64,000 nucleotides of DNA from the NCBI GenBank assembly GCA_039028875.1, contig JBCCHE010000018.1:9834-73833 (forward strand), read 5' to 3'. This document shows, piece by piece, positions 21,849-40,734 of this stretch (positions are counted from its first letter, which is position 1; every line of letters begins with the position of its first letter). This stretch comes from Myxococcota bacterium (GTDB lineage Bacteria; Myxococcota_A; Polyangia; Polyangiales; Houyiibacteriaceae). The position numbers and the translations under genes were made by a program. The notes under the pieces are model-generated. The model was not told the origin of the DNA. It ran no database searches and saw nothing but the letters and a program-made list of their open reading frames with translations.

Positions 21849-23408
21849 ATGGACATCCCTGGTTTTCCACAATCGACGCTGCTCCAAGGTCGCCGTCCAA
21901 GGTGGGTGCGCCAAAGGCTCCTCGAGGCGCTCATCGCATGCCTCGTAGGCGCGTGCGGCGACCTCGGTTGCCCAGACGCCTTCGTCGATGCGTCGGGTGT
22001 CTGCGTGCCGAGCGCGATCAACGAAGGACCGCCCGAACCGGAACCGGAGCCTGAACCGGAGCCTGAACCGGAGCCCGAACCGGAACCGGAACCGGAACCC
22101 CAACCGGAACCCAAGCCCGAGCCACCGTCCGAACGTTGCGACGGGGTCGACAACGACGAAGACACCCTGGTCGACGAAGACTGGCCCGAGCTCGGAACCC
22201 CCTGCGGCGAAGGGCAAGGGGTGGGCGAATGCGTCGCGGGGGTCGTCGAATGCACCGAAGACGGCGCTGGCGTCGAATGCGTGGGCGCAGTGGGTCCCAC
22301 CGAAGAGACCTGCGATGGCCGGGACAACGACTGCGACGGCATCACAGACAACGGGCCTGAGGAAGTGTGTGACGGCCGGGACAACGACTGCGACGGGCTC
22401 CAGGACGAAGGGGTCCTGTCGGTCAAAAAGGATGCAGTGTTCGTCGGCCTCGCCTCGCTCACGGGAATCCCCGGAGGCTTCGCGGTCGCGCGTACGGTCA
22501 ACGGGCAGTTACGGCTCGAAACCTATGACACCCGCGGCAACCGAACAGGTCACCACGACGACGTCGCGCTGATCGACGACCCGGACTACGTCGAGTCGAG
22601 CGCACGTGGAAACGAGGTCGTCGTCACCTGGGGTAGCACCGACCCGTCCGCAGCGGCCGCCGAGGTCGATACGAACCTCATTCCGACGATCGTCGATTCG
22701 GTCGAGCTCCACACCGTATGGAAGCAACCGGGCGTTTTCCGTGCGACCCCTCCGCCCTACCATCCCAAGGTCTCGGCTTCGCCCAGGCGCATCGTCGGCT
22801 ATCACGAGATCGGAAAGTTCGCCGTCGTGCCATTCGGTGCCGACTTCGATGCCCTCACCGAACCACCGATATCCGTCCCCCAGTTCCCGGAGATCGTCGT
22901 TTGGGACGCCACCAACGCGTGGATCGTCCGTGAAGATGGAGACAACCTCCGCGCGTCGTTTCTACTCGACACTGGGAGTCTGCTGTTCGATATCGACATC
23001 GGTCGAGGGCGAAGACCGAGCATCGCCGAATCGAGAGACGCGCTTGGCGTCGCATCCATCCGCGGCGACGACCTCCAAATCACCGAAGTCGAAGGATTGA
23101 ACTTCCAGTGCGTCCCGAACCTCTTCTGCAACGAGCTGATCGACGCCGACGAGCTCTTCGAGGGGCCCGACAAGACCACGGGCCTCGACTACCTCGCCTC
23201 TCTCGACGTATGGGTTGTCGCTGCCGACGCACAGATCCTCGTCATCGGCCGACAGGATCAGCGCGCCGTCCTCCAGCAGCTCGAGCGCCGGACCGGCCTG
23301 CCCGGCACGGTCGACCGGGCAGACGTCGCCACCAGCGGCGGCAGCATCGCGGTCATGCAGTCGACCACAGAAGGCTCCTCGGCGTTGACGTTCCTCGGGT
23401 GCGACTGA
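21849..23408 (+). CDS. lipoprotein with (PE)n linker and MopE-like CDGxDNDCDG putative metal-binding repeats
   Basis: ORF-track 21849..23408 (an alternative GTG start at 21906 gives RQRLLEALIACLVGAC, lipobox). Repeats RCDGVDNDEDTLVDE, TCDGRDNDCDGITDN and VCDGRDNDCDGLQDE. C-terminal 330 aa are of unknown fold. Confidence 0.75.
   Translation: MDIPGFPQSTLLQGRRPRWVRQRLLEALIACLVGACGDLGCPDAFVDASGVCVPSAINEGPPEPEPEPEPEPEPEPEPEPEPEPQPEPKPEPPSERCDGVDNDEDTLVDEDWPELGTPCGEGQGVGECVAGVVECTEDGAGVECVGAVGPTEETCDGRDNDCDGITDNGPEEVCDGRDNDCDGLQDEGVLSVKKDAVFVGLASLTGIPGGFAVARTVNGQLRLETYDTRGNRTGHHDDVALIDDPDYVESSARGNEVVVTWGSTDPSAAAAEVDTNLIPTIVDSVELHTVWKQPGVFRATPPPYHPKVSASPRRIVGYHEIGKFAVVPFGADFDALTEPPISVPQFPEIVVWDATNAWIVREDGDNLRASFLLDTGSLLFDIDIGRGRRPSIAESRDALGVASIRGDDLQITEVEGLNFQCVPNLFCNELIDADELFEGPDKTTGLDYLASLDVWVVAADAQILVIGRQDQRAVLQQLERRTGLPGTVDRADVATSGGSIAVMQSTTEGSSALTFLGCD
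22032..22127 (+). repeat. hexanucleotide (CCG GAA-type) microsatellite, 16 units, encoding (PE)11-PQ-PE-PK-PE-PP
   Basis: Read directly from the sequence: ccc gaa ccg gaa ccg gag cct gaa ... in frame with CDS 21849..23408. Confidence 0.9.
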
Positions 23409-23414
23409 GGCACC

Positions 23415-25169
23415 ATGCGCGGGTCACTTGTCGGAGGGTTCATCGGGCTCTGCACCATCGTGTGCGCGGCGTCGCCGCTCCGCGCGCAGCAGGCAAACGG
23501 TGGCGGGTCAGGATTGTGGGTCGTCATCCCCGCGGCTGTTGGAAGCCAGGCCCAGGCACTCGAAGGCAACGCCGAAGTCATCCGCCAGGCCCTCACGGAT
23601 CGCGGCCTGCGGGTGTGGCCGCCGAGCCGAGCCGCCGAGAGGTTCGAGGTCCTCGGGTCGGCGCCTGCTCCAGAGGTGAGTCAGCGCGACATCGATCGCT
23701 GGGTCGAGCGATCGAGAGCCGCAGTGCGATACTTGGCACGGGCCGACTACAAGGCCGCTCGACGGGAGCTCAAGGCGGCACAACACCTGGCCGACCGCGC
23801 CGCCGAAGAGCTCAACCGCGAGGCGGCTCGTGCCCAACAGGTGCTCGACACCTGCCTTTTCATGGTTCGCGCGTACGTCGAGACCGGAAACGGCGCCGAG
23901 GCTCGCGGCCAAGCACGGGAGTGCCGCCGCTTGGTACCTCGGGTCGAGCCCACGGCCTTTCGCCACACCCCGGAGGTGCGCGATCTGCTCTCCGAGGTCG
24001 ATCGCGAGATGGCGTCCGAGGCCCCCGGGTCGCTCACGGTTCTCAGCTCTCCGACCGACTGCCTGGCACGAATCAACGGCGTGGAGTTCGGGCAGACACC
24101 GATGCGCGACATCGAGTTGCCGGTTGGCAACTACCGGCTCCAAGTCGAGTGTGACCGAGAGCAGCGTGGACGCATCCACAGGGTTGCCGTCGAGAGTGGT
24201 CCGAACCGCATCACCATCGACGTCAACCTCGACCAGGTCGTGCGGACGCGCCCAGACCTTCACCTTGCGTACAGCACCCACCAAGCGTGGGACGAGGACC
24301 GGATGCGCGACGCCCGCCAGCTCTCCGCAGCGCTCGACAACGCCAACCGGTTGGTGGTGAGCGAGCCAGGGGACGGCGTTGTTCGCATGGATCTCGATGC
24401 GGCCGACCGTGAACCCGCCACCGTGTGGCTCGGCGAAGTCGGCGGCGTTGTGCCACCCGAAGACGCGCGTCGCGGGGTCGACGCGCTTCTCGAGGGGCGT
24501 TCGGTGGACTTTTCGACGGCACACCCCACGGCCAAGCCGAGCTGGTTCATGGCCGAGCAGGCGAGGTCCGGTTCGCTCGCCGAGGGACGCGTCACCACGG
24601 CGCAACGGGCCGCGCGTCGCGCGCAGCAGGGCCCTCGGCCGAGAGGACAACGGGTTGCCGGTTGGTCACTCTTGGCGGTTGGCGCGGCCAGCATGGGCGC
24701 GAGTGTGGGCTGGCACGTACGCCGGGGAACACTGGGTGACCGGTTTGTCGCCGCCCCAGCAGACCTCGCCGTTGGCCAGGACTGGCAAGACGCGCGGATT
24801 CCCGTGTGGACGCTGGCCGCGGTTGGCGGAGCTTCCGCGACGGCGGCGATGCCTCTTCTTCTCCCCAACGAACCGCGCACGCCCTGGTGGGGGTGGACGC
24901 TCGGCGCTGCCGGTCTCGGCCTCGGCGCCTACGGGGTCTATCAAGCCGTGACGATGACGCGCTGCCCAAAGCCCTTCGTCACCGACGAAGTCGCCGTCGG
25001 CCAATGCGTCGACCGAGGCCAAGAAGCGGGTCGGGTCGCGCTGTCGATCGGTGGTGCGGTGCCTCTGTTGACCGTCCCCCTGGTGTACCTGTTTCGCCCG
25101 CTGCGGCTCGACCCCACCGTGTCGGCCAACCGAAACGGGGCGCGACTCGAACTCAGGCGAGTCTTCTGA
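23415..25169 (+). CDS. PEGA-domain protein with signal peptide and C-terminal multi-TM region
   Basis: ORF-track 23415..25169. Signal peptide ...CAASPLRAQQ. PEGA-like LTVLSSPTDCLARINGVEFGQTPMRDIELPVGNYRLQVE. Four C-terminal hydrophobic helices. Confidence 0.75.
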   Translation: MRGSLVGGFIGLCTIVCAASPLRAQQANGGGSGLWVVIPAAVGSQAQALEGNAEVIRQALTDRGLRVWPPSRAAERFEVLGSAPAPEVSQRDIDRWVERSRAAVRYLARADYKAARRELKAAQHLADRAAEELNREAARAQQVLDTCLFMVRAYVETGNGAEARGQARECRRLVPRVEPTAFRHTPEVRDLLSEVDREMASEAPGSLTVLSSPTDCLARINGVEFGQTPMRDIELPVGNYRLQVECDREQRGRIHRVAVESGPNRITIDVNLDQVVRTRPDLHLAYSTHQAWDEDRMRDARQLSAALDNANRLVVSEPGDGVVRMDLDAADREPATVWLGEVGGVVPPEDARRGVDALLEGRSVDFSTAHPTAKPSWFMAEQARSGSLAEGRVTTAQRAARRAQQGPRPRGQRVAGWSLLAVGAASMGASVGWHVRRGTLGDRFVAAPADLAVGQDWQDARIPVWTLAAVGGASATAAMPLLLPNEPRTPWWGWTLGAAGLGLGAYGVYQAVTMTRCPKPFVTDEVAVGQCVDRGQEAGRVALSIGGAVPLLTVPLVYLFRPLRLDPTVSANRNGARLELRRVF

Positions 25170-26074
25170 TGCGGGAGGCGGGGGGGGTGTCGGCTGCGCT
25201 GCCCTCGGCCGACGCAGTGCTTGTCCAAGCTGCGGTGCTTTGGTGTAGCTCGGGTCTCTTGGCCTTGGCGGCACATGCATCGGCACAAGGGCCGGGCCGG
25301 GCGGACGAAGGTCCGCTCGGTCCCGAGACGGTCGTCGTTGCGCGGGTACAGGGCACCGAAGGGGTTCGTCAGGCCAACGGCCCACGCGTCGCGGGTGCAG
25401 TCTCGGAGGCGCTTTTTCAACGTGGGTACGCCGTGGCCGAGGCCCCCCGAGCCGAGGAGGCGATCCCGCGGTGCGCAAGCCCGGAGTGCGTGGAGTCTGC
25501 GCTCGGGCGGGCCGATGCGGTGTTCGCGATCGTCCCGGCGGTGTGGGCACGGGGCGGACGTCGTGAGCTCACCCTCACCCTGGTTGGAAAATCGGGCCGG
25601 AACCTAAATGCGGGTACTGTCCTCAACGGTGACCTGTCGACTACCGTGGCGAGCCTCGTCGAGCAGTTGCTGGCCAAGCGTCGAAGTCGCGCCGGAGGAG
25701 CACGCACGCAAACCCCAAACCTATCGGTCGCCGAGCCGATCACGGCACCGCACCTCTCCGCACACCATCCTTCTGCCACAGCGGGTCGCGACCACCCCAA
25801 CGCTTGGAAAGCGGGGCCGGTTGCTCTCCTGTTCGGAGGCGCCGTGACCATCATCTCCGTCGGCGCGGTGGCGGCGACGCGCGACGATACCCAGCAACTC
25901 AACAAGGGGGCCTCGGCCGCGTGGTGGGTCGTCGGCGGCCTCTGTGTCGCGGGCGGAACCGCGTGGTGGGTCGTAGGGCACCGCCGCCGTACCCGCTCGA
26001 GCGACGCGGCGGCACGCCACGAGACGTCGGTTCGTGTGAGCCCACGTGGGTTTGACTTGCGGGTGCGGTTTTGA
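25169..26074 (+). CDS. secreted/membrane protein, unknown function
   Basis: Lies inside ORF-track 24806..26074. ATG 25169 overlaps the upstream TGA by 1 nt (TGATG). Signal-like LLALAAHASAQ. Two C-terminal TM helices (GPVALLFGGAVTIISVGAVAA, AAWWVVGGLCVAGGTAWWVVG). Confidence 0.55.
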   Translation: MREAGGVSAALPSADAVLVQAAVLWCSSGLLALAAHASAQGPGRADEGPLGPETVVVARVQGTEGVRQANGPRVAGAVSEALFQRGYAVAEAPRAEEAIPRCASPECVESALGRADAVFAIVPAVWARGGRRELTLTLVGKSGRNLNAGTVLNGDLSTTVASLVEQLLAKRRSRAGGARTQTPNLSVAEPITAPHLSAHHPSATAGRDHPNAWKAGPVALLFGGAVTIISVGAVAATRDDTQQLNKGASAAWWVVGGLCVAGGTAWWVVGHRRRTRSSDAAARHETSVRVSPRGFDLRVRF

Positions 26075-26088
26075 GAGAGGTTAGGCTC

Positions 26089-27048
26089 ATGGTTCGTCTC
26101 GCTTGCTTTTCTCTTGGGCTGATCGTCGCAGCCGGCTGCGTCCTCGAGGACCAACCCGTTGACCCCGACGGCGGCGTCGCGGGTTCGGCGGGCTCTCCGG
26201 CCACTGGAGGCGTTGGTGGCGGAATTCCTTGTGGTCCGTGTTCCGGAGACACACCCGTCTGCAACGATGCAACCGGCGCATGCGTCGAATGCACCGATGC
26301 CGACACGAGCGCATGCACCGCCCCAACACCTGCGTGTGACGCGACCACCTTCACCTGCGTCGCATGCCTCACGAGTCAAGATTGCCAACAGGCCGACGCG
26401 GCGAGGTGCGATCCCGTCACCCTCGAATGCGTGGGGTGCGAAACGGCCAACGACTGCAGCGACATCCCAGGGGCCCCTGCCTGCGGCGACGGCGTGTGTG
26501 TCGAGTGCACGCCAGCCAGTGAATCGGTCGACTGCCCTGGAACCAGTTGCAACCCGGCCACTTTCAGGTGCACTGCAACACCGATCGGTAGCCGCGCCAC
26601 GTGCGAGACGTGCCAGAGCGACACCGAATGCAGCGACGACGCCGACCGATGCGTCGCAATGAACTACCAGGGGGAGGCGTTCCCGGATGAGGAAACGGGA
26701 TTCTGCTTGCGTCAACGGAGCGCAAGCTGCGAGAGGCCGTTCTCAATCACGCTAGAGGACCGGTCGAGTTTCTCGGGGCCACCGACCGAGGACTACTGCG
26801 GCATCAACGAAGAACTCGCGACTTGCCCAGCGGTGCTGGCCCTCCTCGCGGACGACCGCTGTGCTCAAGACGAAGACTGCCCTCAGCCGAGTGGACTGTG
26901 CAGAGATGTGGGCGGCCTTCCGGATCGATGCACCTACGCTTGCTCGACAGTCGTGGAGTGCCTCGACGACCTTCCACCAGGACGACCGGGGGCAACGTGC
27001 GGGCCGCCCGCACCGATGGGCGCCAGCTACTGCGGCGGGCCCGACTAG
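26089..27048 (+). CDS. Cys-rich repeat lipoprotein (Myxococcus-type cysteine-rich repeats)
   Basis: ORF-track 26071..27048 (TTG start). I prefer ATG 26089 (MVRLACFSLGLIVAAGC, lipobox), preceded by gagagagg. About 30 Cys in repeated C-x-x-C / DC patterns (ACVECTDAD, TCVACLTSQDC, ECVGCETANDC, VCVECTPAS). Confidence 0.7.
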   Translation: MVRLACFSLGLIVAAGCVLEDQPVDPDGGVAGSAGSPATGGVGGGIPCGPCSGDTPVCNDATGACVECTDADTSACTAPTPACDATTFTCVACLTSQDCQQADAARCDPVTLECVGCETANDCSDIPGAPACGDGVCVECTPASESVDCPGTSCNPATFRCTATPIGSRATCETCQSDTECSDDADRCVAMNYQGEAFPDEETGFCLRQRSASCERPFSITLEDRSSFSGPPTEDYCGINEELATCPAVLALLADDRCAQDEDCPQPSGLCRDVGGLPDRCTYACSTVVECLDDLPPGRPGATCGPPAPMGASYCGGPD

Positions 27049-27250
27049 CGCGCCCCACGCACGCAGGGCCGGCCGTCGCTACCCGACACGTTGGGGCGGC
27101 CCCGCCGAGGCGTGTATTCCAGCCGTCTCACTGAGGTTGGGTGCTTCGGGGCTATCGGGTCCAAGCCCGACCGCGGGGACGCACGACGGCACGCACCTGC
27201 ACGGGCGTTCAACGGCGCCGCTGGAACCGCGAGGAACGGTCGGGGTCCGC

Positions 27251-27262
27251 TCGGCCGAAGAA
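27251..27262 (+). repeat. 12-nt direct repeat TCGGCCGAAGAA, copy 1 (contains palindrome TCGGCCGA)
   Basis: Exact 12-mer, repeated at 27383-27394 within the same 440-bp intergenic region. Confidence 0.7.
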
Positions 27263-27293
27263 CGGTGCAAATCGAGGCGCCCACGGGAGGACT

Positions 27294-27309
27294 TGTGATC
27301 TCGATCACA
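27294..27309. promoter_or_regulatory. CRP/FNR-type binding-site candidate TGTGATC-TC-GATCACA (TGTGA-N6-TCACA)
   Basis: Perfect 7-bp inverted arms read directly from the sequence. Matches the E. coli CRP consensus TGTGAtctagaTCACA at 15 of 16 positions. The centre is about 186 nt upstream of ATG 27488. Confidence 0.5.
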
Positions 27310-27382
27310 GTGGGGTCAGGCGAATGGGATGCGCTTTTGGCGAGGGTGAAGTGAGACCGATCCGCGGTGTGAGAGACGTGTT

Positions 27383-27394
27383 TCGGCCGAAGAA
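27383..27394 (+). repeat. 12-nt direct repeat TCGGCCGAAGAA, copy 2 (within 10-bp palindrome TTCGGCCGAA, 27382-27391)
   Basis: Exact match to 27251-27262. Confidence 0.7.
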
Positions 27395-27487
27395 TCGCGC
27401 AGTCGCGTGCTGGTGAGCTAAGATGTGAACCTAGGCCCCGTGGGGGGGCTCGGATCGCGATGGGGTTGTCGCGATGGAGCAGGCGGC

Positions 27488-28624
27488 ATGACAGCACACG
27501 TTTTATTCGTCGATGATGAAGAACCGAACCTGGTCGTTTTCGAGGCGGTCTGCGGCGATGAGTTTCCCGTTTTGACCGCGTCGAGCGGAGCCGATGGCTT
27601 GGCTCTGATGAAGGAGCACGAGATCGGTGTCGTGCTCACCGACCAACGGATGCCGGAAATGACCGGCATCGAACTCCTCGAGAAGGTCGAGCACGAATAC
27701 CCGGAGACGATCCGACTGTTGATCACAGCCTACTCCGACCTCCAGGCAGCCGAAGATGCCATCAACCGCGGACACGTCCGACGCTACATGCGAAAGCCCT
27801 GGGAGCCCGAGGTTCTGCGCGCCGAGCTGCGTGACGCGATCGACCTCTACAACCTCAACTCGCGTGTCAAAGAGCTCGAGCAACGACTGCTCGAAACCGA
27901 ACGCGCGTACTCGCTGAGCGTGGTCGCAAGCGGCTTGGCTGAAGAGTTACGGAATCCGGTCGGTTGGATACGGAACAACCTCACCGTGATCGAGACTTCG
28001 ATCGGAGCCGCCAGTTCGGCGCTGCAGGAAACCTCGCCTGACATCACGCGCGCACGCGGCGTGCTGGCCCAGGTCGACACGGCGGTCACCGACGCCAGGG
28101 ACGGTGTGCAGCGCATTCTCGAGCTCACCGAGCAGATGGCGAAGGCGCCCGAAGAAGTCGAAGCAGAGATCGTCGACTTGGCCGACGCCGTCCGCGTCGC
28201 GCTTCGCAAAGCAGAGAGCAGCGGCCTTCGCGGGCGCGCCCTCATCGAAGTGGCCACCGGGGTCGAGCCCAAGGTCCTCGCAACGAGAACCAACTTGGTG
28301 CAGATCGCACTGAACCTTCTCGCCAACGCCATCCAACGAGCCGCGAGCCGCGCGGAAGGCCAAGGGATCGTGCGGGTCACGACTGCAGTCCTCGACGGAA
28401 AGGCCGTGCTCGACGTCTCCGACAACGGCCCAGAGCTCGAGGGAGACCAAGCCAGCAGCGTCTTCAAGCCCTTCGGTACCGGAGGCCGCCTGCAAGGTGC
28501 GGGCGTAGGCCTCGCCATCTCGAAGCGAATCGCGGAGGAGCTCGGAGGCGAGCTCGAAGTCGCGACGACCGAGAGCCAGGGTACGCGCTTCCGTCTCACC
28601 CTGCCCCCGGCAGGAGACGCGTGA
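27488..28624 (+). CDS. response-regulator receiver fused to a histidine-kinase-like core lacking the phospho-acceptor His
   Basis: ORF-track 27425..28624. ATG 27488 chosen (MTAHVLFVDDEEPN). REC motifs DDE, TDQRMPEMTG and RKPW. The DHp helix reads ASGLAEELRNPV, with Glu (GAA 27941-27943) where canonical H-E-L-R-N-P has His. HATPase_c elements NLLANAIQ, DNGPE and GAGVGLAISKRI. Confidence 0.85.
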   Translation: MTAHVLFVDDEEPNLVVFEAVCGDEFPVLTASSGADGLALMKEHEIGVVLTDQRMPEMTGIELLEKVEHEYPETIRLLITAYSDLQAAEDAINRGHVRRYMRKPWEPEVLRAELRDAIDLYNLNSRVKELEQRLLETERAYSLSVVASGLAEELRNPVGWIRNNLTVIETSIGAASSALQETSPDITRARGVLAQVDTAVTDARDGVQRILELTEQMAKAPEEVEAEIVDLADAVRVALRKAESSGLRGRALIEVATGVEPKVLATRTNLVQIALNLLANAIQRAASRAEGQGIVRVTTAVLDGKAVLDVSDNGPELEGDQASSVFKPFGTGGRLQGAGVGLAISKRIAEELGGELEVATTESQGTRFRLTLPPAGDA

Positions 28625-28631
28625 GCCGCGG

Positions 28632-29093
28632 GTGGCGCCGAACCAGAACCAGTTCGGGCTGACTTTCGACGACTCTGCTTGGCCGCTCCTGTATGTGCGC
28701 TTCCCGTCGAAGCCTCTGTCGGATGAGGGTTTCGAGCACTTCATCGAGCGCTACACGAGCTACGTCGAGCGGCGTGTCCTCTTTGGCTCGATCATCGACT
28801 CACGTGGACTGAGCACGGCGATCACGCCGAGCCAACGGCGAAGGCTCGCCACTTGGTTCGAGGTGACCGGCCCGCTCGCGGCAGACGTCCATTTCGCGAT
28901 CGCTGTCCTTCTGAGTAACCCCTTGATCCGAGGCGCGTTGAAAGCCGTGACCTGGGTCGCCCCGATCCCGGTTCCGGTTCAAGCGTTTGGCTCGATCGTC
29001 GACGCGGCACCCTGGGTCCGGGAACGCTTTCAAGAGTTCCAGGTCCCCGTGTCGACCGCCGTCGAAACGCTCCTCGAGGGCCGAGGCGGCTAA
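28632..29093 (+). CDS. hypothetical protein (153 aa), possible partner of the REC-kinase-like protein
   Basis: ORF-track 28632..29093. GTG start 7 nt after the upstream stop. Globular composition. I cannot assign a family (a STAS/SpoIIAA-like fold is only a guess). Confidence 0.55.
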   Translation: MAPNQNQFGLTFDDSAWPLLYVRFPSKPLSDEGFEHFIERYTSYVERRVLFGSIIDSRGLSTAITPSQRRRLATWFEVTGPLAADVHFAIAVLLSNPLIRGALKAVTWVAPIPVPVQAFGSIVDAAPWVRERFQEFQVPVSTAVETLLEGRGG

Positions 29094-29106
29094 CCCACGC
29101 GTTCCG

Positions 29107-30693
29107 TTAGTCGATCCGTCGGTACCGAGGATCGAGGACGATGGCTTTTGCCATCTCGATGAAGTCGTAGTTGTTGCCGCCGAACGCGGCGACTTGTTCG
29201 GGCAGCCAAGTGCCCTTCTCGTTGGTGGTCAGCTCGCGGCTGAACAGGAACTCCGAGAAGTTCTGGACGGCGCAGCTGGCCAGCTTGCCCTGGGTCGTGG
29301 CGTCCTCGAAGAGCCCGCTCGGGCCCTTGTCGATCGCTGCGGCCTCCTCGGGGGTTCGCCAAGCCGTCGTCAGGAGTTTGCCCGCTTCGTCTCCGAGAGA
29401 CCCAGGCTCGGTCTCGAGATCGCGCGTGACATAGTCACGTCGACAGGTGTTCGAGCACTCGCCAGGTTCGCAGGTCGCACAGTTCTCGCGGAACAAGTCC
29501 ATGTCTGCCCGGTAGTTGAAGTCGCCCTCTTCCCAGCGACCGAAGTACGTGGTCGCGGGCTCGATCGTGGTGTGGCAGGCCGCGCATCCGCAGCGTTCGG
29601 AGAGGTCCGGGTTCTGCGAACAGGGGTCGGTGGCCGACGGAAGGCCGCCGGCAGGCGCCACGAACGGGTCGCAGAGGAACGCCGTATAGAGTCGGTTGAC
29701 CCGAGCGCGTTGCGACGTGTGGCGAAGCAGATAGCCCATCGTGGTGAGGATTCCACTGTGGTGTTCCGGCCGCTCGATGAGCTCCCAATCGGCTGTGTAC
29801 GGGGCGTCCGTGATATCGCTGAGCTCCCCGCCCGCATCGCGACGCAGATAGCGATAGTAATGCCTGAGCGCGCCGTTGAAGTACGTCTGGTTGGTCGAGA
29901 ACGCGTCGGTGTAGGGGCGTCCCGCCTTGATGATGCCTTCGAAGATGCGCGCGGGCTCGTTGGTCAGCGCCTCTCGGATATCGGCAACGTTGCCGTCGGA
30001 CCCTTCGGCGGCGCAGTAGCGCAGACCCGGCCCGCACCCACAGCCCGGGTCGGAGTTACGTCGCGTACAATCGGTGAAGGCGCCTCCCGAGCTCTGGTCG
30101 AGGCCGGTCGCGAACTCCTGTGCATCGAACGCGCACACGCGGATCGAAATATCCGGATTCCAGTAGGGGGACATCTCGACCCAGCCGTCCATGTTGCAGC
30201 CTTCGGCCGTTTGCTCGCACTCTCCGCCGGTGTAGCCCGTCTGCATCGGCAGCGGGCGGCCGTCCGTGTCGTAGTTGGTGTGTTGCATGTCTAGGCACGG
30301 TTCGTACGCACCACGAAACTGGATCTGCTTGTCGAATACCGACCAGACCTGACTACCCCCCGATTCGAACTGTTCGATGAACGTTCCGAAGAGATCGCCA
30401 TTCGAGGGGAGCGCGGTCCAGAGGAAGCCACGGTGATAGGCAGCGAGACGCTCGAAGAACTCGGGTGATGCCAGCATCTCGTCGACCTTGGCCTCGTCGA
30501 CGTCGGCGCCACCATGAAGCTGCTCGTACTCCTCGACGGTGGGCGGACGCCCGTAGAGATCGAGTGTGACCTGCCGGAGGAAGCGGTACTTGCCGAGACG
30601 ATCGGTGGGTGCGCACTGCTCGGGGGACTGTGCCAACGAGACGAGCGGCAAGACGGTCATCGCGGCGATGGCAAGAATCAAGAGCCGTTTCAT
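29107..30693 (-). CDS. secreted DUF1588-like protein (Planctomycete-type, CxxCH-containing)
   Basis: ORF-track 29107..30693. Signal peptide MKRLLILAIAAMTVLPLVSLAQS. Motifs DLYGRPPTVEEYE, HSGILT, RLYTAFLCDPF and CGCAACHTTIEP. Start overlaps the DUF1501 stop (ATGA at 30690-30693). Confidence 0.7.
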   Translation of the reverse strand: MKRLLILAIAAMTVLPLVSLAQSPEQCAPTDRLGKYRFLRQVTLDLYGRPPTVEEYEQLHGGADVDEAKVDEMLASPEFFERLAAYHRGFLWTALPSNGDLFGTFIEQFESGGSQVWSVFDKQIQFRGAYEPCLDMQHTNYDTDGRPLPMQTGYTGGECEQTAEGCNMDGWVEMSPYWNPDISIRVCAFDAQEFATGLDQSSGGAFTDCTRRNSDPGCGCGPGLRYCAAEGSDGNVADIREALTNEPARIFEGIIKAGRPYTDAFSTNQTYFNGALRHYYRYLRRDAGGELSDITDAPYTADWELIERPEHHSGILTTMGYLLRHTSQRARVNRLYTAFLCDPFVAPAGGLPSATDPCSQNPDLSERCGCAACHTTIEPATTYFGRWEEGDFNYRADMDLFRENCATCEPGECSNTCRRDYVTRDLETEPGSLGDEAGKLLTTAWRTPEEAAAIDKGPSGLFEDATTQGKLASCAVQNFSEFLFSRELTTNEKGTWLPEQVAAFGGNNYDFIEMAKAIVLDPRYRRID

Positions 30694-32024
30694 GGCTGCA
30701 CCTCCTGATCGAGGATCAAGTCGTCGAGGGTAATGTCGCGGAAATCGAAGGGGTCGCCGCCGATACTCTTCACGAGCGTCCCAAGGACCATCTCGGGTTT
30801 GAGTTGAATGCCGTTGTCGTTCGGCGCGCCCGTCGACGGGTCGACCGAGATGATGCCGAGGTCCTGGTCATTGCTGGTACCGAACACTCCGCTTCGGAGG
30901 GTGTTGCCGATCACGATGATCGAATCGTTGAACCAATGATCTCGTCCGCCGTTGCCGTTGATGCGAGGTGTGCGAGAAAACTCGGAGTAGACCACGACCG
31001 TCGTTCGATCGAAGTTCGGATCGTCCTCACGTAAGTGCGTGACCAGCGCTCCCACGGCATCGAACGAGCGCTGCAAGCGATCGGGCTGGTTGAAAGCCCA
31101 CTCGTTGCCGTGCGTATCGAGGCCGCCCGACAGGCGCGCCGTCACCGCGGTGCTCAGGTCGGTACGAAGGAGCTGGGCCGCGGTTGCAGCCGCCTGGTGA
31201 GCACCATCGTTGACGTTGTAAATCGCTTGGATCTGTTGGGCTTCTTCGGAGCCACCCCGCAGGTCGAAACGACTGATCAGGTCTTGGTCTTGAATCCGTT
31301 TGAGCCTGTCGCGGCTGAGGACCATCTGGTCTTCGGGGAGGCGCCCCTCGTACTCCGGAGAGACGCACGAGCGCGCGGCGTCCAGGGAGGTCTTGACCAA
31401 GTCCTCGAGATAGTCAGGCAGCCGGTCACGGTTTTGGCCAATCAGCTGCCCGATCTCATCGGGATTGTTCATCTGAAACGCGGTGACGCGGTTATCGAAG
31501 CTCTTATTGAAGTTGGCGACGTCGATCGCGGCGTTTGGGATGAGCTTGCCGTCGTCGAAGGTCGCAGCGGCGATCGTGCTAAGCGAGTCGCCTTTGGCCA
31601 ACGTGTTGTCGGGTTCGATGCCGGTATGGCTGTAGAGGGTCGCACTCTCGTGCGACACCGTGTTCATGTTCATTCCGCGGAAGATCGTCACGAGGTCGGC
31701 ATGCGGCATCAGGGCCGTCATGGTGGGGCCCCACAACACCTCGGACCCACCGCTCATCACGGGGATCGGGTCTTGGTACAGCGTGTCCAGCCGCTCGGTC
31801 CCGAGGTCGATGCCGTCGTAGGTTCGTAGCGGGTCACGGGGGTCGGGGCCGAGGAGGACGTCCCATCCGCCAGAGAGGTAGCACGCGACGAGGCGTCGCC
31901 CGCCGGGTGCCTGGCCGAGGACACGGGTGATGGGAGCGAGGGTGAGCATCCCCACACCCGCCAACGCCCCTCGGAAGAAGAGCCTTCTGCTGAACTCGAG
32001 CTTGTGGTCGTTACACATGGTCAC
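30690..32024 (-). CDS. DUF1501 family protein (sulfatase-fold) with Tat signal
   Basis: ORF-track 30690..32024. Twin-arginine leader SRRLFFRGALAGVG. Family signature YSEFSRTPRINGNGGRDHW. Confidence 0.85.
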   Translation of the reverse strand: MTMCNDHKLEFSRRLFFRGALAGVGMLTLAPITRVLGQAPGGRRLVACYLSGGWDVLLGPDPRDPLRTYDGIDLGTERLDTLYQDPIPVMSGGSEVLWGPTMTALMPHADLVTIFRGMNMNTVSHESATLYSHTGIEPDNTLAKGDSLSTIAAATFDDGKLIPNAAIDVANFNKSFDNRVTAFQMNNPDEIGQLIGQNRDRLPDYLEDLVKTSLDAARSCVSPEYEGRLPEDQMVLSRDRLKRIQDQDLISRFDLRGGSEEAQQIQAIYNVNDGAHQAAATAAQLLRTDLSTAVTARLSGGLDTHGNEWAFNQPDRLQRSFDAVGALVTHLREDDPNFDRTTVVVYSEFSRTPRINGNGGRDHWFNDSIIVIGNTLRSGVFGTSNDQDLGIISVDPSTGAPNDNGIQLKPEMVLGTLVKSIGGDPFDFRDITLDDLILDQEVQP

Positions 32025-37490: not shown

Positions 37491-37949
37491 TTAGTGGCCT
37501 TTCCAAATCCATAGGGCGCGCAGGTGCATCGCGGCGGGCGCGGGGTCGCCACGGAGCCACGCGATCGCGCCCTTCTTGAAGCGAACCCAGGTTCCCAGTG
37601 GATCCCCGGTGGTGAGCAGGGCCAGGGTGTCGCTCATCCAGGGCTCGTGACCGACACAAGCCACAGACCGACCTTCGAGGCTGGCGAAGAAGCTCGGCTC
37701 AGGCGCTTGGGCCAAGCCGGCCGTTTGCACGACGGGGCCGACCGTGACCGGATCGAGAAGGGCCGCGGTCTGCGCGGCGCGCACCCAGGGGCTCGTGTAC
37801 ACGCGATCGAACTGAATGTCGGCGCGCTGAAGGTCGGCCACCATTTGCGTAAACCGTTGCCGGCCGACGTCGGTGAGGGCGCGTTCATGGTCGGGCAAAC
37901 CGGCTCGACGCTCTTCTGCGATCGCATGGCGGATCAGGAACACATCCAT
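37491..37949 (-). CDS. sixA: phosphohistidine phosphatase SixA (histidine phosphatase superfamily)
   Basis: ORF-track 37491..37949. Catalytic motifs FLIRHAIAE and VGHEP. About 150 aa, typical of SixA. Confidence 0.8.
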   Translation of the reverse strand: MDVFLIRHAIAEERRAGLPDHERALTDVGRQRFTQMVADLQRADIQFDRVYTSPWVRAAQTAALLDPVTVGPVVQTAGLAQAPEPSFFASLEGRSVACVGHEPWMSDTLALLTTGDPLGTWVRFKKGAIAWLRGDPAPAAMHLRALWIWKGH

Positions 37950-37955
37950 GACAGC

Positions 37956-39449
37956 TCACTCTGCCCCGTGGGTTTCGAGTCTGAAGCCGACAGCCTTGAG
38001 GAGCTTCTGCTCACGTTCTAGGTCGGCGTCAACCAAGGGGTGAGAGGCGAGCCAGCTCGGCTCGAAGTCGAGCTCGAGCTTGTTGTCTTTCGCGGAAATC
38101 TTGGGAACAGGCACGTTTTCCGGGTCGCGGGTGCGGTTGAGCAAGACGGAGAGCCGAAGGAGCACCGTAAGGCGCTTGGCGGCGCGACGAAGCTCCCGCG
38201 GAAGCGTGTCGAAGAAGCTGTCGTCGAGCTTGCGGCGGTGCCCGCGGATCAACGTCGCCACGAGCTGCTGCTCGTCGCGCGAAAACCCGGGCAAGTCAGA
38301 CGACGCCACCAGATAGGCGCCGTGCTTGTGGTGCCCCGTGTAGTTCACCGCGAGACCGATTTCGTGAAGCTGCGCTCCCCAGGTGAGTGCGTGCACCATG
38401 TCGGGCGAGTCTTTTCCCCACTCGTCGGCCAACTGTTCGAGCAAGGCCAATGCCGTCGCTTGCACGCGGTCTGCGTGATCCTGGTCGATCGAGTAGCGGC
38501 TCGAGAGCATGGCGATCGTCCGGTCGCGGGGATCCTCGTCCTGGATCCGACCGATCATGTCGTAGATCAGGCCCTCGCGAAGTGCGGTGGGCGAGACCCA
38601 CATCTCGTCGATCGCCAGCCGGTCGAAGACCGCACTGAGAATGGCAACGCCGCCCGGAAAGACCGCTCGTCGGTCGGGATCGAGGCCGGGGAGCTCGAGG
38701 CGGTCCAAGCGTCCGGTGGTGATCATCGCTTGCTCGAGCTTCGTCAGGCCCTCTGCCGTGATCGTGCCGTGGGCCCAGCCCGCCTCTTCGAGGATTGCGG
38801 CGACCGCCCGTATCGTGCCGGACGCCCCGATGGCCCGTTCCCATCCGTACTGACGGAGCGTGGCGCGCACCGGTTGGAGTTCGAGGGAAGCCGCGAGCTT
38901 CGCGTGGTTGAAGCGCTTGCGGCTGACCTTCCCCTCCGAAAAGAACTGCGTGGTGAAACCGACGCAGCCCATGTAGAGCGAGTGAACCGCGACGGCTTCG
39001 AAACTGTCGCCAACGATGCACTCGGTACTGCCGCCGCCGATATCGACGACGAGGCGCCGAGCAGGCGCGCCGGCGATCCCGTGCGACACGCCAAGGTAGA
39101 TCAGCCTGGCCTCCTCACGGCCCGGGATGATCTCGATCTGGTGACCGAGCGCAGTACTCGCGTCATCTAAGAACTCCCGGGCGTTCTTGGCCTTTCGGAG
39201 GGTATTGGTGCCGACCGCACGAACTTGGTCGGCGCCGAAGTCTCGGAGTCGCTGACCGAAACGGGTAAGCGCTTCGTGGGCCCGTTGTTGAGACTCTTCA
39301 TCGAGGCCGCCATCGTCCTGGAGGCCGGCCGCGAGCCGGACCGGCTCTCGAAGGCGATCGACGATCTGTAGGCTGTCGTGGTCGAGCCGCGCGATCACCA
39401 TGTGGAAGCTGTTCGACCCCAGGTCGACTGCCGCGAGCGACTCCATCAA
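37956..39449 (-). CDS. ppx: exopolyphosphatase / guanosine pentaphosphate phosphohydrolase (Ppx/GppA family)
   Basis: ORF-track 37956..39449. Motifs AAVDLGSNSFHMVIARL and VDIGGGSTE. HD-like C-terminal half (LHEIGLAVNYTGHHKHGAY). Confidence 0.9.
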   Translation of the reverse strand: MMESLAAVDLGSNSFHMVIARLDHDSLQIVDRLREPVRLAAGLQDDGGLDEESQQRAHEALTRFGQRLRDFGADQVRAVGTNTLRKAKNAREFLDDASTALGHQIEIIPGREEARLIYLGVSHGIAGAPARRLVVDIGGGSTECIVGDSFEAVAVHSLYMGCVGFTTQFFSEGKVSRKRFNHAKLAASLELQPVRATLRQYGWERAIGASGTIRAVAAILEEAGWAHGTITAEGLTKLEQAMITTGRLDRLELPGLDPDRRAVFPGGVAILSAVFDRLAIDEMWVSPTALREGLIYDMIGRIQDEDPRDRTIAMLSSRYSIDQDHADRVQATALALLEQLADEWGKDSPDMVHALTWGAQLHEIGLAVNYTGHHKHGAYLVASSDLPGFSRDEQQLVATLIRGHRRKLDDSFFDTLPRELRRAAKRLTVLLRLSVLLNRTRDPENVPVPKISAKDNKLELDFEPSWLASHPLVDADLEREQKLLKAVGFRLETHGAE

Positions 39450-39464
39450 CGAGCTTACTTTACC

Positions 39465-40292
39465 TTAGTTTGCGGCGGACGCCGCTGCTTTTCGGAGCCA
39501 GTCGCCAGTAGCATCATCGGCGGGGAAATACGACTCGATCCGCAGCTCCTGCGCGGTGACGTCCATCGGTGTGCCCAAAGTCGTGAGGGTCGTGAAGAAC
39601 TCCAACTGCACGTCTCCCTTCTTCAACTTGACCGTGATGCAAACCTCCGGGGTGCGTGCGAGGTCCACGTTGCGAAGTTTCGTGGACACGCCTGGATACT
39701 CGAGCAGCGCGTCCACGAGTTTTCGGATCTCGCTCGTCTCGAGCTCGACGATCGACTCTCGGTAGAGACGATCAAGCAAGATCCCGGCGACTTCTTCCCA
39801 GTTGACGACGAAGGGTCGGACTCCGGCGGGGTGGAACAGAGAGTGCACTACGTTCTGCATGATGATCGGATCGATGGGTGGCGTATCGAAGAAGAGCGTC
39901 ATCAGTCGCGCGAACGCCTGGTTCATGTTCAACAGGTCCCAGGTCCGCGAGAGAACGACGGCCGGGTAAGGCTCGTGATGCGCGAGCATCGCGTCGAACG
40001 CGCGACGGACGGGCTGCATCTCGGGTGCAGCCAGGTTGCTCTCCCGGTAGACCGGCGCGAAGCCGGCCGCGGAGAGGAGGGAGTTGCGCTCGCGCAGCGG
40101 GAGGTCGAGCGCGCTCGCCAGGATGAGGACCATCTCGCGGCTCGGTGAAGACTTCCCGTTCTCGACATAGGAGATGTGTCGCGTCGAGACCTCGGACTCG
40201 ATCGCCAACTGCTGCTGGCTCATGCGCCGGGCCGTGCGCCATTGGCGCAAGAGCGGCCCGAACCCGGTCGGGGCCACGTTGAGAGAGGACAT
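39465..40292 (-). CDS. XRE-family HTH regulator with MmyB-like ligand-binding domain
   Basis: ORF-track 39465..40292. HTH segment LRQWRTARRMSQQQLAIESEVSTRHISYVENGKSSPSREMVL, followed by an MmyB-like C-terminal domain. Confidence 0.85.
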   Translation of the reverse strand: MSSLNVAPTGFGPLLRQWRTARRMSQQQLAIESEVSTRHISYVENGKSSPSREMVLILASALDLPLRERNSLLSAAGFAPVYRESNLAAPEMQPVRRAFDAMLAHHEPYPAVVLSRTWDLLNMNQAFARLMTLFFDTPPIDPIIMQNVVHSLFHPAGVRPFVVNWEEVAGILLDRLYRESIVELETSEIRKLVDALLEYPGVSTKLRNVDLARTPEVCITVKLKKGDVQLEFFTTLTTLGTPMDVTAQELRIESYFPADDATGDWLRKAAASAAN

Positions 40293-40323
40293 AGCGCGAG
40301 TTTACCTTCTTCTTTCAGGCAGC

Positions 40324-40344
40324 CCATGACCTCCGAGGTCATGG
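40324..40344. promoter_or_regulatory. 21-bp palindrome CCATGACCTC-C-GAGGTCATGG, operator candidate for the MmyB-like regulator
   Basis: Perfect 10-bp arms read directly from the sequence. Lies in the 100-bp divergent region between 40292 (regulator start) and 40393. Confidence 0.5.
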
Positions 40345-40392
40345 CTGAACGCGCGAGACGGGCCCAAACTGATCCGAAACAAGGAGGTAGCC

Positions 40393-40719
40393 ATGAAATT
40401 ACAGAACTTTTTCCTGATCGCAGTCTTCGTCGTGTTCACCGGGTACTCCGCGACGGTGGTGATCGACCACGGCGTCACCGGGTTCGTTGACGTGGCGATG
40501 GCCGGCGGATGGGCGCTCCAGATCCTCATCGACCTTTGCATCGCGCTGACGGCGTTCATGGTCTGGATGTTCGGCGACGCCAAGGAACGCGGGATCGCCG
40601 CGTGGCCCTACGCGATCGGAATCGTCTGTACGGGATCGGTGGCCGCGCTCGCCTACTTGGTGCACCGCTCGTTTCGGGAACGGAGTGGCGCAACGGGCGC
40701 TCGACCCGCGCACGCCTAG
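40393..40719 (+). CDS. small integral membrane protein (108 aa)
   Basis: ORF-track 40393..40719. AAGGAGG lies 6 nt upstream of the ATG. Three to four hydrophobic helices. Confidence 0.65.
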   Translation: MKLQNFFLIAVFVVFTGYSATVVIDHGVTGFVDVAMAGGWALQILIDLCIALTAFMVWMFGDAKERGIAAWPYAIGIVCTGSVAALAYLVHRSFRERSGATGARPAHA

Positions 40720-40734
40720 TCCGGCGCGTCCTAC

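Follow-up and report, generated by a model that had tools for sequence, protein, structure and literature searches.

Histidine pseudokinases are a known kind of protein represented by a few studied cases, such as DivL and PsmA, and their mode of signalling is largely open. DivL of Caulobacter (PDB 4q20) has Tyr at the position of the phospho-acceptor His and multiple PAS domains; it senses phosphorylated DivK and controls CckA (PMC4211667). PsmA of Streptomyces, which consists of a histidine-kinase-like part, a disordered region, and a receiver (REC) domain in this order, carries Glu (S. venezuelae) or, in further species, Asp, Gln, Val, or Tyr at the acceptor position; it can do without its receiver Asp and acts by protein–protein interaction (PMC12963549). 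The closest described architecture to that considered here is LvrB of pathogenic Leptospira (PDB 8vc9), the prototypical Rec-controlled histidine kinase (PMC5863495, PMC13269768), in which REC is followed by a domain for dimerization and histidine phosphotransfer (DHp) and one for catalysis and ATP binding (CA). LvrB shares one operon with LvrA (PAS–DHp–CA–REC–DHp–CA), and phosphotransfer from LvrA His218 to LvrB Asp56 has been demonstrated (PMC5863495). When the LvrB receiver is phosphorylated, the signalling helices zip and a CA domain is released from its place on the DHp bundle (PMC13269768); LvrB autophosphorylates at His161 and passes the phosphoryl group to LvrC, which combines REC with an RsbW-like anti-σ domain (PMC5863495, PMC13269768). 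In this article, we describe a gene pair from a stretch of 64,000 nucleotides (hereafter the window) of a Myxococcota bacterium (contig JBCCHE010000018.1, assembly GCA_039028875.1), which encodes a protein of LvrB-like architecture without the acceptor His, followed by a small orphan protein. We refer to the former as the pseudokinase and to the latter as the partner.

The pseudokinase gene (27488..28624, forward strand) extends from ATG at 27488 to TGA at 28622-28624 and encodes 378 amino acids, assigned to REC, an αS helix, DHp, and CA on the basis of the reading frame, Pfam and NCBIfam profiles, phmmer search of PDB, and an AlphaFold2 (AF2) model with its fold matches. A longer frame starting with GTG at 27425 was rejected because the homologues start with MTAH and because in relatives the ATG shares the sequence ATGA with the stop codon of the upstream gene, the usual 4-nt overlap. 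The NCBIfam LvrA model covers residues 3-373. The AF2 model (mean predicted local distance difference test score, pLDDT, 82.8) shows a canonical REC, a long helix that spans 107-179, another one at 186-218, and, at 227-372, an α/β CA domain; one unbroken helix is predicted to run from α5 of REC into α1 of DHp, and the ATP lid (330-337) is of low confidence, as is usual for lids. The best full-length match of the model in PDB is LvrB 8vc9, followed by HK853, DivL, YF1, and ZraS.

The codon at the acceptor position, residue 152, is GAA (27941..27943, forward strand), as noted in a preliminary description of this DNA, and the surrounding degenerate H-box reads ASGLAEELRNPVGW. The DHp-like helical hairpin to which it belongs (residues 125-218; 27860..28141, forward strand) was delimited from alignments and the AF2 model, the Pfam HisKA profile reaching 13 bits, which is under its cut-off. 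The register was set by two alignments: 1) phmmer against PDB aligned the query 'vasglaEelrnpv' with 'laagvaHEIRNPL' of ZraS, which puts E152 in the His column, and 2) in a MAFFT alignment with 120 homologues, the six closest relatives that possess an acceptor His (AHELRNP) have it in column 152. An alternative acceptor was looked for and rejected, because residues 120-378, which span DHp and CA, contain no His in the window protein and none in 44 of 97 full-length clade members, and because no column outside REC is rich in His or conserves it.

The collection of orthologues comprises 113 sequences of 57-100% identity, drawn from NCBI, JGI, ENA, and Logan; they belong to uncultured Myxococcota/Polyangiales, and all relatives are metagenome-assembled, from marine, sediment, and soil metagenomes. 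His is absent at column 152 in all 113, which carry Asp (67), Glu (36), Asn (6), Ser (2), Gly (1), or Gln (1). The orthologue alignment proposed in the preliminary description thus restores no His, and it does not find Glu conserved either. We conclude, as that description did, that the protein is very probably kinase-dead, in the sense that autophosphorylation on the canonical His would not occur. The suggestion that Glu could act as a permanent mimic of phospho-His fares less well: an acidic tendency is real (91% of orthologues), whereas the remaining 9% have Asn, Ser, Gly, or Gln, and Asp, not Glu, is both the majority and the apparent ancestral residue.

The nearest relatives beyond the clade (~48% identity) carry His at the acceptor site. 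The codons found at site 152 are CAC (His, in the outgroup), GAC/GAT, GAA/GAG, and AAC, and in a neighbor-joining tree, a simple distance tree, the basal His-less lineages all have Asp. The most direct reconstruction based on these observations is that Asp (GAC) is ancestral within the clade and arose from CAC by one transversion, and that Glu was derived from it (GAC to GAA) in some branches including that of the window. The loss of His is neither a chance event nor a sequencing error, since it extends to every orthologue, since the independent contig L004 from a metagenome-assembled genome has Glu at the same site, and in view of the codon survey. One could imagine that the carboxylate took over the role of the acceptor, so that CA forms an acyl phosphate on Asp/Glu152 that is then passed to a receiver. 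The frequency of acidic residues and the retained nucleotide pocket would suit such a His-independent phosphorelay; however, Asn, Ser, Gly, and Gln occur at this site within otherwise conserved orthologues, the altered G1 box and lid (see below) argue against efficient delivery of the γ-phosphate, and we know of no precedent among histidine kinases. We regard its probability as nearly negligible.

In the wider family of REC–histidine kinase proteins (148 representatives) most members have His, and a phylogenetically separate lineage has Arg, Gln, or Asn. Most members of this second His-less lineage of the ~380-aa family have Arg (P0242, P0244, P0247, P0249, P0261, P0263, P0266), and the others Gln (P0246) or Asn (P0257, P0262); several have degenerate G1 and F boxes. 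Because of this separate lineage, the data suggest that loss of His may be a recurrent way of rewiring such cascades.

The receiver (residues 4-118; 27497..27841, forward strand) is the best preserved part of the protein. It matches Pfam Response_reg with 66 bits (residues 5-114) and aligns with the REC of HupR, where D52 (GAC, 27641-27643) corresponds to the acceptor Asp, unchanged in entry 2jk1 and replaced by Glu in the variant 2vuh (phmmer against PDB). The acid pocket D9/D10, the phospho-acceptor D52, T80, and K103 are invariant in ~100-110 orthologues, in agreement with the initial impression that the receiver is functional. The CA domain (HATPase_c, Bergerat fold; residues 227-374; 28166..28609, forward strand) is assigned from the Pfam match (76 bits, residues 268-374), column counts, and the AF2 model. 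Its N box is QIALNLLANAIQ, its F box VFKPFGTGG, and its G2 box GAGVGL; the G1 box is D312-N-G-P-E316 (28421-28435), as read originally, with E316 (28433-28435) in place of the second Gly. All that the preliminary description read from the sequence is confirmed, and the nucleotide pocket is largely kept, with the Asn residues of the N box, the Asp of G1, and G2 retained. Column counts show that two further sites changed along with the acceptor His: in the F box and lid, 'FFTTK' of the His-bearing relatives is remodelled to 'FG[VT]GGR' in the clade, with loss of the Lys of 'TTK', and the second Gly of G1 varies freely across the clade (P/A/Q/R/L/T/E). Conservation of at least 95% is found at N276, N280, D312, G314, G337, G339, G341, the H-box neighbours E153, R155, P157, and W160, and the five catalytic residues of REC. 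Binding of a nucleotide by CA is plausible on these grounds, and catalysis is doubtful.

Ratios of nonsynonymous to synonymous substitution rates (dN/dS), obtained by pairwise Nei-Gojobori comparison of 39-42 loci, rise from 0.05 in REC through 0.10 in DHp and 0.12 in CA to 0.13 in the partner; dS is ~1.1 and the ratios are approximate. Comparison of the window with L004 yields 107 synonymous and 6 non-synonymous differences in the pseudokinase (dN/dS 0.014) and 46 and 7 in the partner (dN/dS 0.038). Because the pseudokinase values lie at 0.05-0.12, the His-less state appears to be selected and not a product of decay. A decaying relic, that is, a pseudogene in progress followed by a spurious ORF or an unrelated orphan, is very improbable given these ratios in both genes, more than 110 intact orthologues from three kinds of habitat, and a confidently predicted partner fold; what could be cited for it are the partner truncations in L045 and L046 and two damaged copies. 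The first of these copies, in L040 (6837-7956), has a frameshift at about residue 224 and no upstream kinase; in the second, P0108 in L050 (5001-6359), the C-terminus has diverged, both neighbours are missing, and the Ppx and sulfatase genes close by are fragmented. Assembly error is possible in either case.

The residues that follow site 152 bear on a different interpretation, in which the protein acts as a phosphatase only, or as a phosphate sink: the carboxylate at the His site would serve as a general base in dephosphorylating its own REC or the internal REC of an LvrA-type kinase, draining or resetting that upstream kinase, with stimulation by nucleotide. His is the general base in HK853/EnvZ, where ADP is stimulatory (PMC7005713). 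In the clade, the HisKA phosphatase motif E/D-x-x-T/N is represented by E153-L-R-N156 in the window protein; E153 is present in 112/113, R155 in 110/113, and P157 in 113/113 orthologues, and position 156 is N or T in 83/113. Together with the acidic residue at 152, the retained nucleotide-binding residues, and the evident function of the protein in lineages that have no partner (see below), this makes a phosphatase the main alternative. Against it, ~27% of orthologues have H, S, Q, P, or some other residue at position 156 and 9% have N, S, G, or Q at 152, a pure sink would need neither a conserved CA domain nor a co-evolving partner, and a role limited to draining the upstream kinase is difficult to reconcile with strong selection on the pair after that kinase was deleted. 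Overall, we consider this interpretation rather unlikely. The preliminary description had listed a pseudokinase scaffold, a phosphatase-only device, and an ATP sensor, and these appear inseparable on sequence alone.

The deletion just mentioned is apparent from comparison with related contigs, where a gene for a ~850-aa kinase (MASE8–HisKA–CA–REC–HisKA–CA) lies directly 5' of the pseudokinase gene. Such an LvrA-type double kinase adjoins the pseudokinase in >30 related loci, and its C-terminal REC–DHp–CA half is a paralogue of the pseudokinase (26-29% identity). His is retained in the two H-boxes of this kinase (SHELRTP and AHEVKNP) in 22/22 complete loci; the loss is therefore specific to the second gene. 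Judged by architecture and operon order, the pseudokinase is evidently the second gene of an LvrA/LvrB-like kinase dyad.

In the window only a frameshifted relic of the first gene is left (27382..27487, forward strand), corresponding to its 3' end, roughly the final 29-35 codons, which follow the G2 box and run to the stop codon, and recognized by tblastn and DNA alignment. With residues 780-808 of the upstream kinase of L047, tblastn matches 27382-27468 at 69% identity, and the homology of the window DNA to L046, L047, and L006 begins at ~27386. The window and L004 (89% nucleotide identity) have in common the deletion junction and a 1-nt deletion within the relic, which ends in the ATGA overlap. 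The scar as a whole occupies 27049-27487, with ~330 nt of unrelated intergenic DNA followed by the ~105 nt that survive of the kinase 3' end. Relatives have >4 kb at this place, comprising a gene for an unknown protein of ~500 aa and the kinase gene, and in L046 and L047 also aminotransferase, acyl carrier protein, and AMP-ligase genes. Because the counterpart of the Cys-rich DUF8331-like gene that precedes the scar (26071-27048) lies several kb further away in relatives, a deletion of >4 kb must have removed the upstream kinase in the window lineage. The pair remains under strong constraint even without an adjacent kinase, since the low dN/dS values of the window and L004 (0.014 and 0.038) come from two loci to which the deletion is common. 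In L024 the upstream kinase is likewise absent, which may be an assembly error. The aminotransferase, acyl carrier protein, and AMP-ligase genes were considered as a tie to lipid synthesis, which was dropped, such genes occurring only in L046, L047, and L002.

A hybrid kinase of 866 aa (HisKA–HATPase_c–REC–Hpt; 9816-12416, forward strand), 15 kb upstream, was examined as the possible missing kinase and rejected on account of its architecture and of an identity of only 36-40%. It is not an orthologue of the deleted kinase and is a conceivable alternative phosphodonor. A scan of 26900-29300 for promoters and terminators gave nothing usable, one promoter-like site coinciding with the start codon. 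In the His-bearing sister operon L003 a gene for a MerR/HTH–REC response regulator (1408-1989) is found 5' of the kinase dyad. Among the His-less loci examined, none showed a gene for a response regulator, which hints that a terminal regulator may have been lost together with His.

The partner gene (28632..29093, forward strand) starts with GTG at 28632, 7 nt past the pseudokinase stop codon, precisely where it was first reported, and encodes 153 amino acids. The family is a lineage-restricted orphan: the ~200 homologues are all at least ~59% identical and all labelled 'hypothetical', no profile match was found in Pfam (query and 49 members), NCBIfam, or PDB, and a profile search of 5.8 billion proteins added nothing, the family being closed at ~200 clusters. 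The tight linkage described initially is borne out in related genomes. In a scan of one genome per species the partner occurs in 42 loci, the pseudokinase lies directly 5' of it, at 11-48 nt, wherever upstream sequence exists, and no copy of the partner was found elsewhere; in L051 there is a 4-nt overlap between the genes, relatives show translational coupling, and both genes are under purifying selection.

The AF2 model of the partner (pLDDT 83, predicted TM-score 0.81) is a β-β-α-β-α-β-α-β-α domain. Its Foldseek matches include STAS domains of SLC26, the DUF3478 'SpoIIAA-like' protein 2q3l, RsbS (6jhk), and SiaC (7e6g/6kko), with probabilities of 0.95-1.0, E-values of 2.5e-3 to 4e-2, and TM-scores of 0.5-0.66; weaker matches are to Sec14/CRAL-TRIO. 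A STAS/SpoIIAA-like α/β fold is likely according to this model, which is an assignment to a fold and not to a family. A loop that precedes helix α2 contains the invariant residues D56-S57-R58-G59…T62 and a nearly invariant T65. Residues 53-64 ('SIIDSRGLSTAI') resemble the phosphorylation motif of SpoIIAA ('SFMDSSGLGVIL') at the same residue numbers, in a match that is not significant.

Bergerat-fold proteins such as RsbW, SpoIIAB, and SiaB usually have a STAS-fold protein as their binding partner, and the CA domain could be seen as a repurposed Ser/Thr kinase that phosphorylates S57, T62, or T65 in the partner loop, in a switch of the SpoIIAB–SpoIIAA, RsbW–RsbV, or SiaB–SiaC type. The conserved N-box Asn, G1 Asp, and G2 box, a sub-threshold HATPase_c_2 match (24 bits; also weak in related loci), and the predicted fold with invariant Ser and Thr before α2 are in line with this idea. 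However, GHKL protein kinases (SpoIIAB, RsbW, PDK) use a catalytic Glu placed four positions ahead of the Mg-binding Asn (ExxxN), and the corresponding residue here, N276, four residues before N280, is Asn in 105/109 orthologues, as in ordinary histidine kinases. The lid Lys is gone and the second Gly of G1 is relaxed, and in the single local hhalign match, itself not significant, the invariant Arg58 falls on the phospho-Ser58 of SpoIIAA. In addition, no PP2C/SpoIIE phosphatase gene is present among the Pfam-annotated neighbours in ten loci or among the genes that flank the pair in the window, and lineages that never possessed the partner conserve the nucleotide pocket just as well. We therefore regard Ser/Thr kinase activity as quite improbable.

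The model that we favour, at about an even chance of being right, is a composite one, based on analogy with LvrB: a REC-gated, kinase-dead conformational switch that acts by binding the STAS-like partner. The receiver would be the input and would still be phosphorylated, the donor in relatives being the adjacent LvrA-type double kinase; in the window genome, where that kinase is deleted, the donor would be another one, perhaps some other kinase or acetyl phosphate. As in LvrB, phosphorylation of REC would zip the signalling helix and free CA from the DHp bundle, moving the protein from a clasped to a released state. Because no phosphoryl group can be passed on, the conformational change itself would be the output, and CA would retain nucleotide binding as a cofactor for conformation. 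The switch would gate binding and release of the co-transcribed 153-aa protein in the manner of a partner switch; that it controls partner binding we infer from the linkage and the modelled fold.

Several observations weigh against this model and limit in particular the part given to the partner. The likeness to STAS exists at the level of fold only, with weak E-values (2.5e-3 to 4e-2), and hhalign comparison of the partner profile with Bacillus subtilis SpoIIAA is not significant (probability 0.4%). No partner is present in the basal His-less loci L002 (57% identical), L049 (65%), and L001 (80%), nor in L048 or in L047, which is 93% identical and shares its downstream PSCyt2/DUF1501 genes with the window, and only remnants are found in L046 (residues 1-67) and L045 (residues 3-33). 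Because basal His-less lineages are without it, the partner must have been gained after the loss of His, and then lost or truncated in at least four lineages. The pseudokinase accordingly has a function independent of the partner, which is an accessory and not the reason for the pseudokinase state. The two-gene signalling module of the preliminary description is thus upheld with respect to linkage and has to be qualified with respect to history. A search for an interface on the kinase, by way of residues that only lineages with the partner have or that changed once it was lost, yielded 11 scattered positions (27, 51, 162, 194, 199, 208, 297, 302, 309, 332, and 338) without a clear patch. The retained E/DxxN motif and nucleotide pocket suit a phosphatase at least equally well.

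A bolder form of the composite model is that a partner-switching module was born from a two-component kinase: the His-less CA domain would have recruited a newly arisen STAS-like protein, and REC would control its binding or its Ser/Thr phosphorylation in place of a His-to-Asp relay. This form is clearly unlikely as matters stand. The related genomes contain loci that are 1) His-bearing, 2) His-less without partner, 3) His-less with partner, and 4) His-less with partner and without the upstream kinase, and, if this form were true, the origin of a partner-switching module from a two-component kinase would be seen with its intermediates still visible.

The genes around the pair are of several kinds. 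Upstream of the scar is a run of secreted-looking Cys-rich or repetitive proteins (21849-27048, forward strand), namely a protein with a MopE-like metal-binding motif (21849-23408), a PEGA-domain protein (23415-25169), and the DUF8331-like Cys-rich protein (26071-27048). A PSCyt2 (DUF1549) and DUF1501 gene pair (29107-32024, reverse strand) converges with the partner gene, with 13 nt between the stop codons, and is found at this spot only in the sub-lineage of the window (L004-L009, L047). The region 37494-43683 (reverse strand) is a conserved chromosomal neighbourhood common to most related loci, with genes for a SixA-like His_Phos_1 protein (37494-37949), Ppx/GppA (37974-39446), and a ~980-aa LPG_synthase_TM–sulfatase protein (40738-43683). 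That a phosphohistidine-phosphatase-like (SixA-like) gene lies close to a kinase cascade may be due to chance or may be meaningful.

In the literature searched we found no description of this pseudokinase clade, and annotation pipelines label all such proteins 'hybrid sensor histidine kinase/response regulator'. What is new with respect to the known histidine pseudokinases is an LvrB type with an apparently functional REC, an ExxN motif, nucleotide-binding residues, an orphan STAS-like partner, and a fully sampled stepwise history. The clade amounts to a clean natural experiment on a well-understood type of switch, of which LvrB structures exist in both states: it combines a single loss of His, a receiver and a nucleotide pocket that stayed in place, and a small partner that came later, with all intermediates sampled. 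The role of a kinase-dead DHp–CA module becomes directly testable with soluble proteins.

Among known systems, LvrB is the closest in its order of REC, signalling helix, DHp, and CA, its length of ~380 aa, and its having no sensor or DNA-binding domain, although sequence identity is only ~18-19%, and the pseudokinase differs in the replaced His and the altered G1 box and lid. The likeness extends to the operon, where in relatives a double kinase (sensor–DHp–CA–REC–DHp–CA) precedes the REC–DHp–CA gene as LvrA accompanies LvrB; the upstream sensor in relatives is, however, the membrane domain MASE8 and not PAS, and the gene is deleted in the window. No response regulator comparable to LvrC was seen downstream, the STAS-like orphan being found there instead. 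AsgA of Myxococcus xanthus (~385 aa), in which a receiver at the N-terminus is combined with a histidine kinase at the C-terminus and which has neither an input nor an output domain, functions in a phosphorelay; by this description it is a myxobacterial protein of the same layout and similar size, which differs in keeping its His.

PsmA is similar in being a histidine-kinase-like protein conserved across a lineage, with a non-His acceptor site and conserved residues after it. It is not homologous to the pseudokinase beyond the histidine-kinase superfamily, and it differs in that REC here is N-terminal and the most conserved part and that ExxN and the nucleotide pocket are kept. DivL, which is among the fold matches, is likewise a pseudo-histidine kinase, and its DHp–CA output domain serves anew as a surface for binding or sensing ('reverse signalling'); it has multiple PAS domains and no N-terminal REC. 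The partner-switching pairs RsbW–RsbV, SpoIIAB–SpoIIAA, and SiaB–SiaC (6kko, 7e6g) resemble the present pair in that a Bergerat-fold protein is encoded beside a small STAS-fold protein, and HsbR–HsbA, a REC-controlled partner-switching pair, in that a receiver controls the module. In those pairs the kinases are of the RsbW type (HATPase_c_2), with a catalytic Glu and PP2C phosphatases, whereas the present Bergerat domain has recently arisen from a two-component CA domain and lacks this Glu, no PP2C gene lies nearby, and the 153-aa partner, while predicted to have a similar fold, has no sequence similarity to STAS families.

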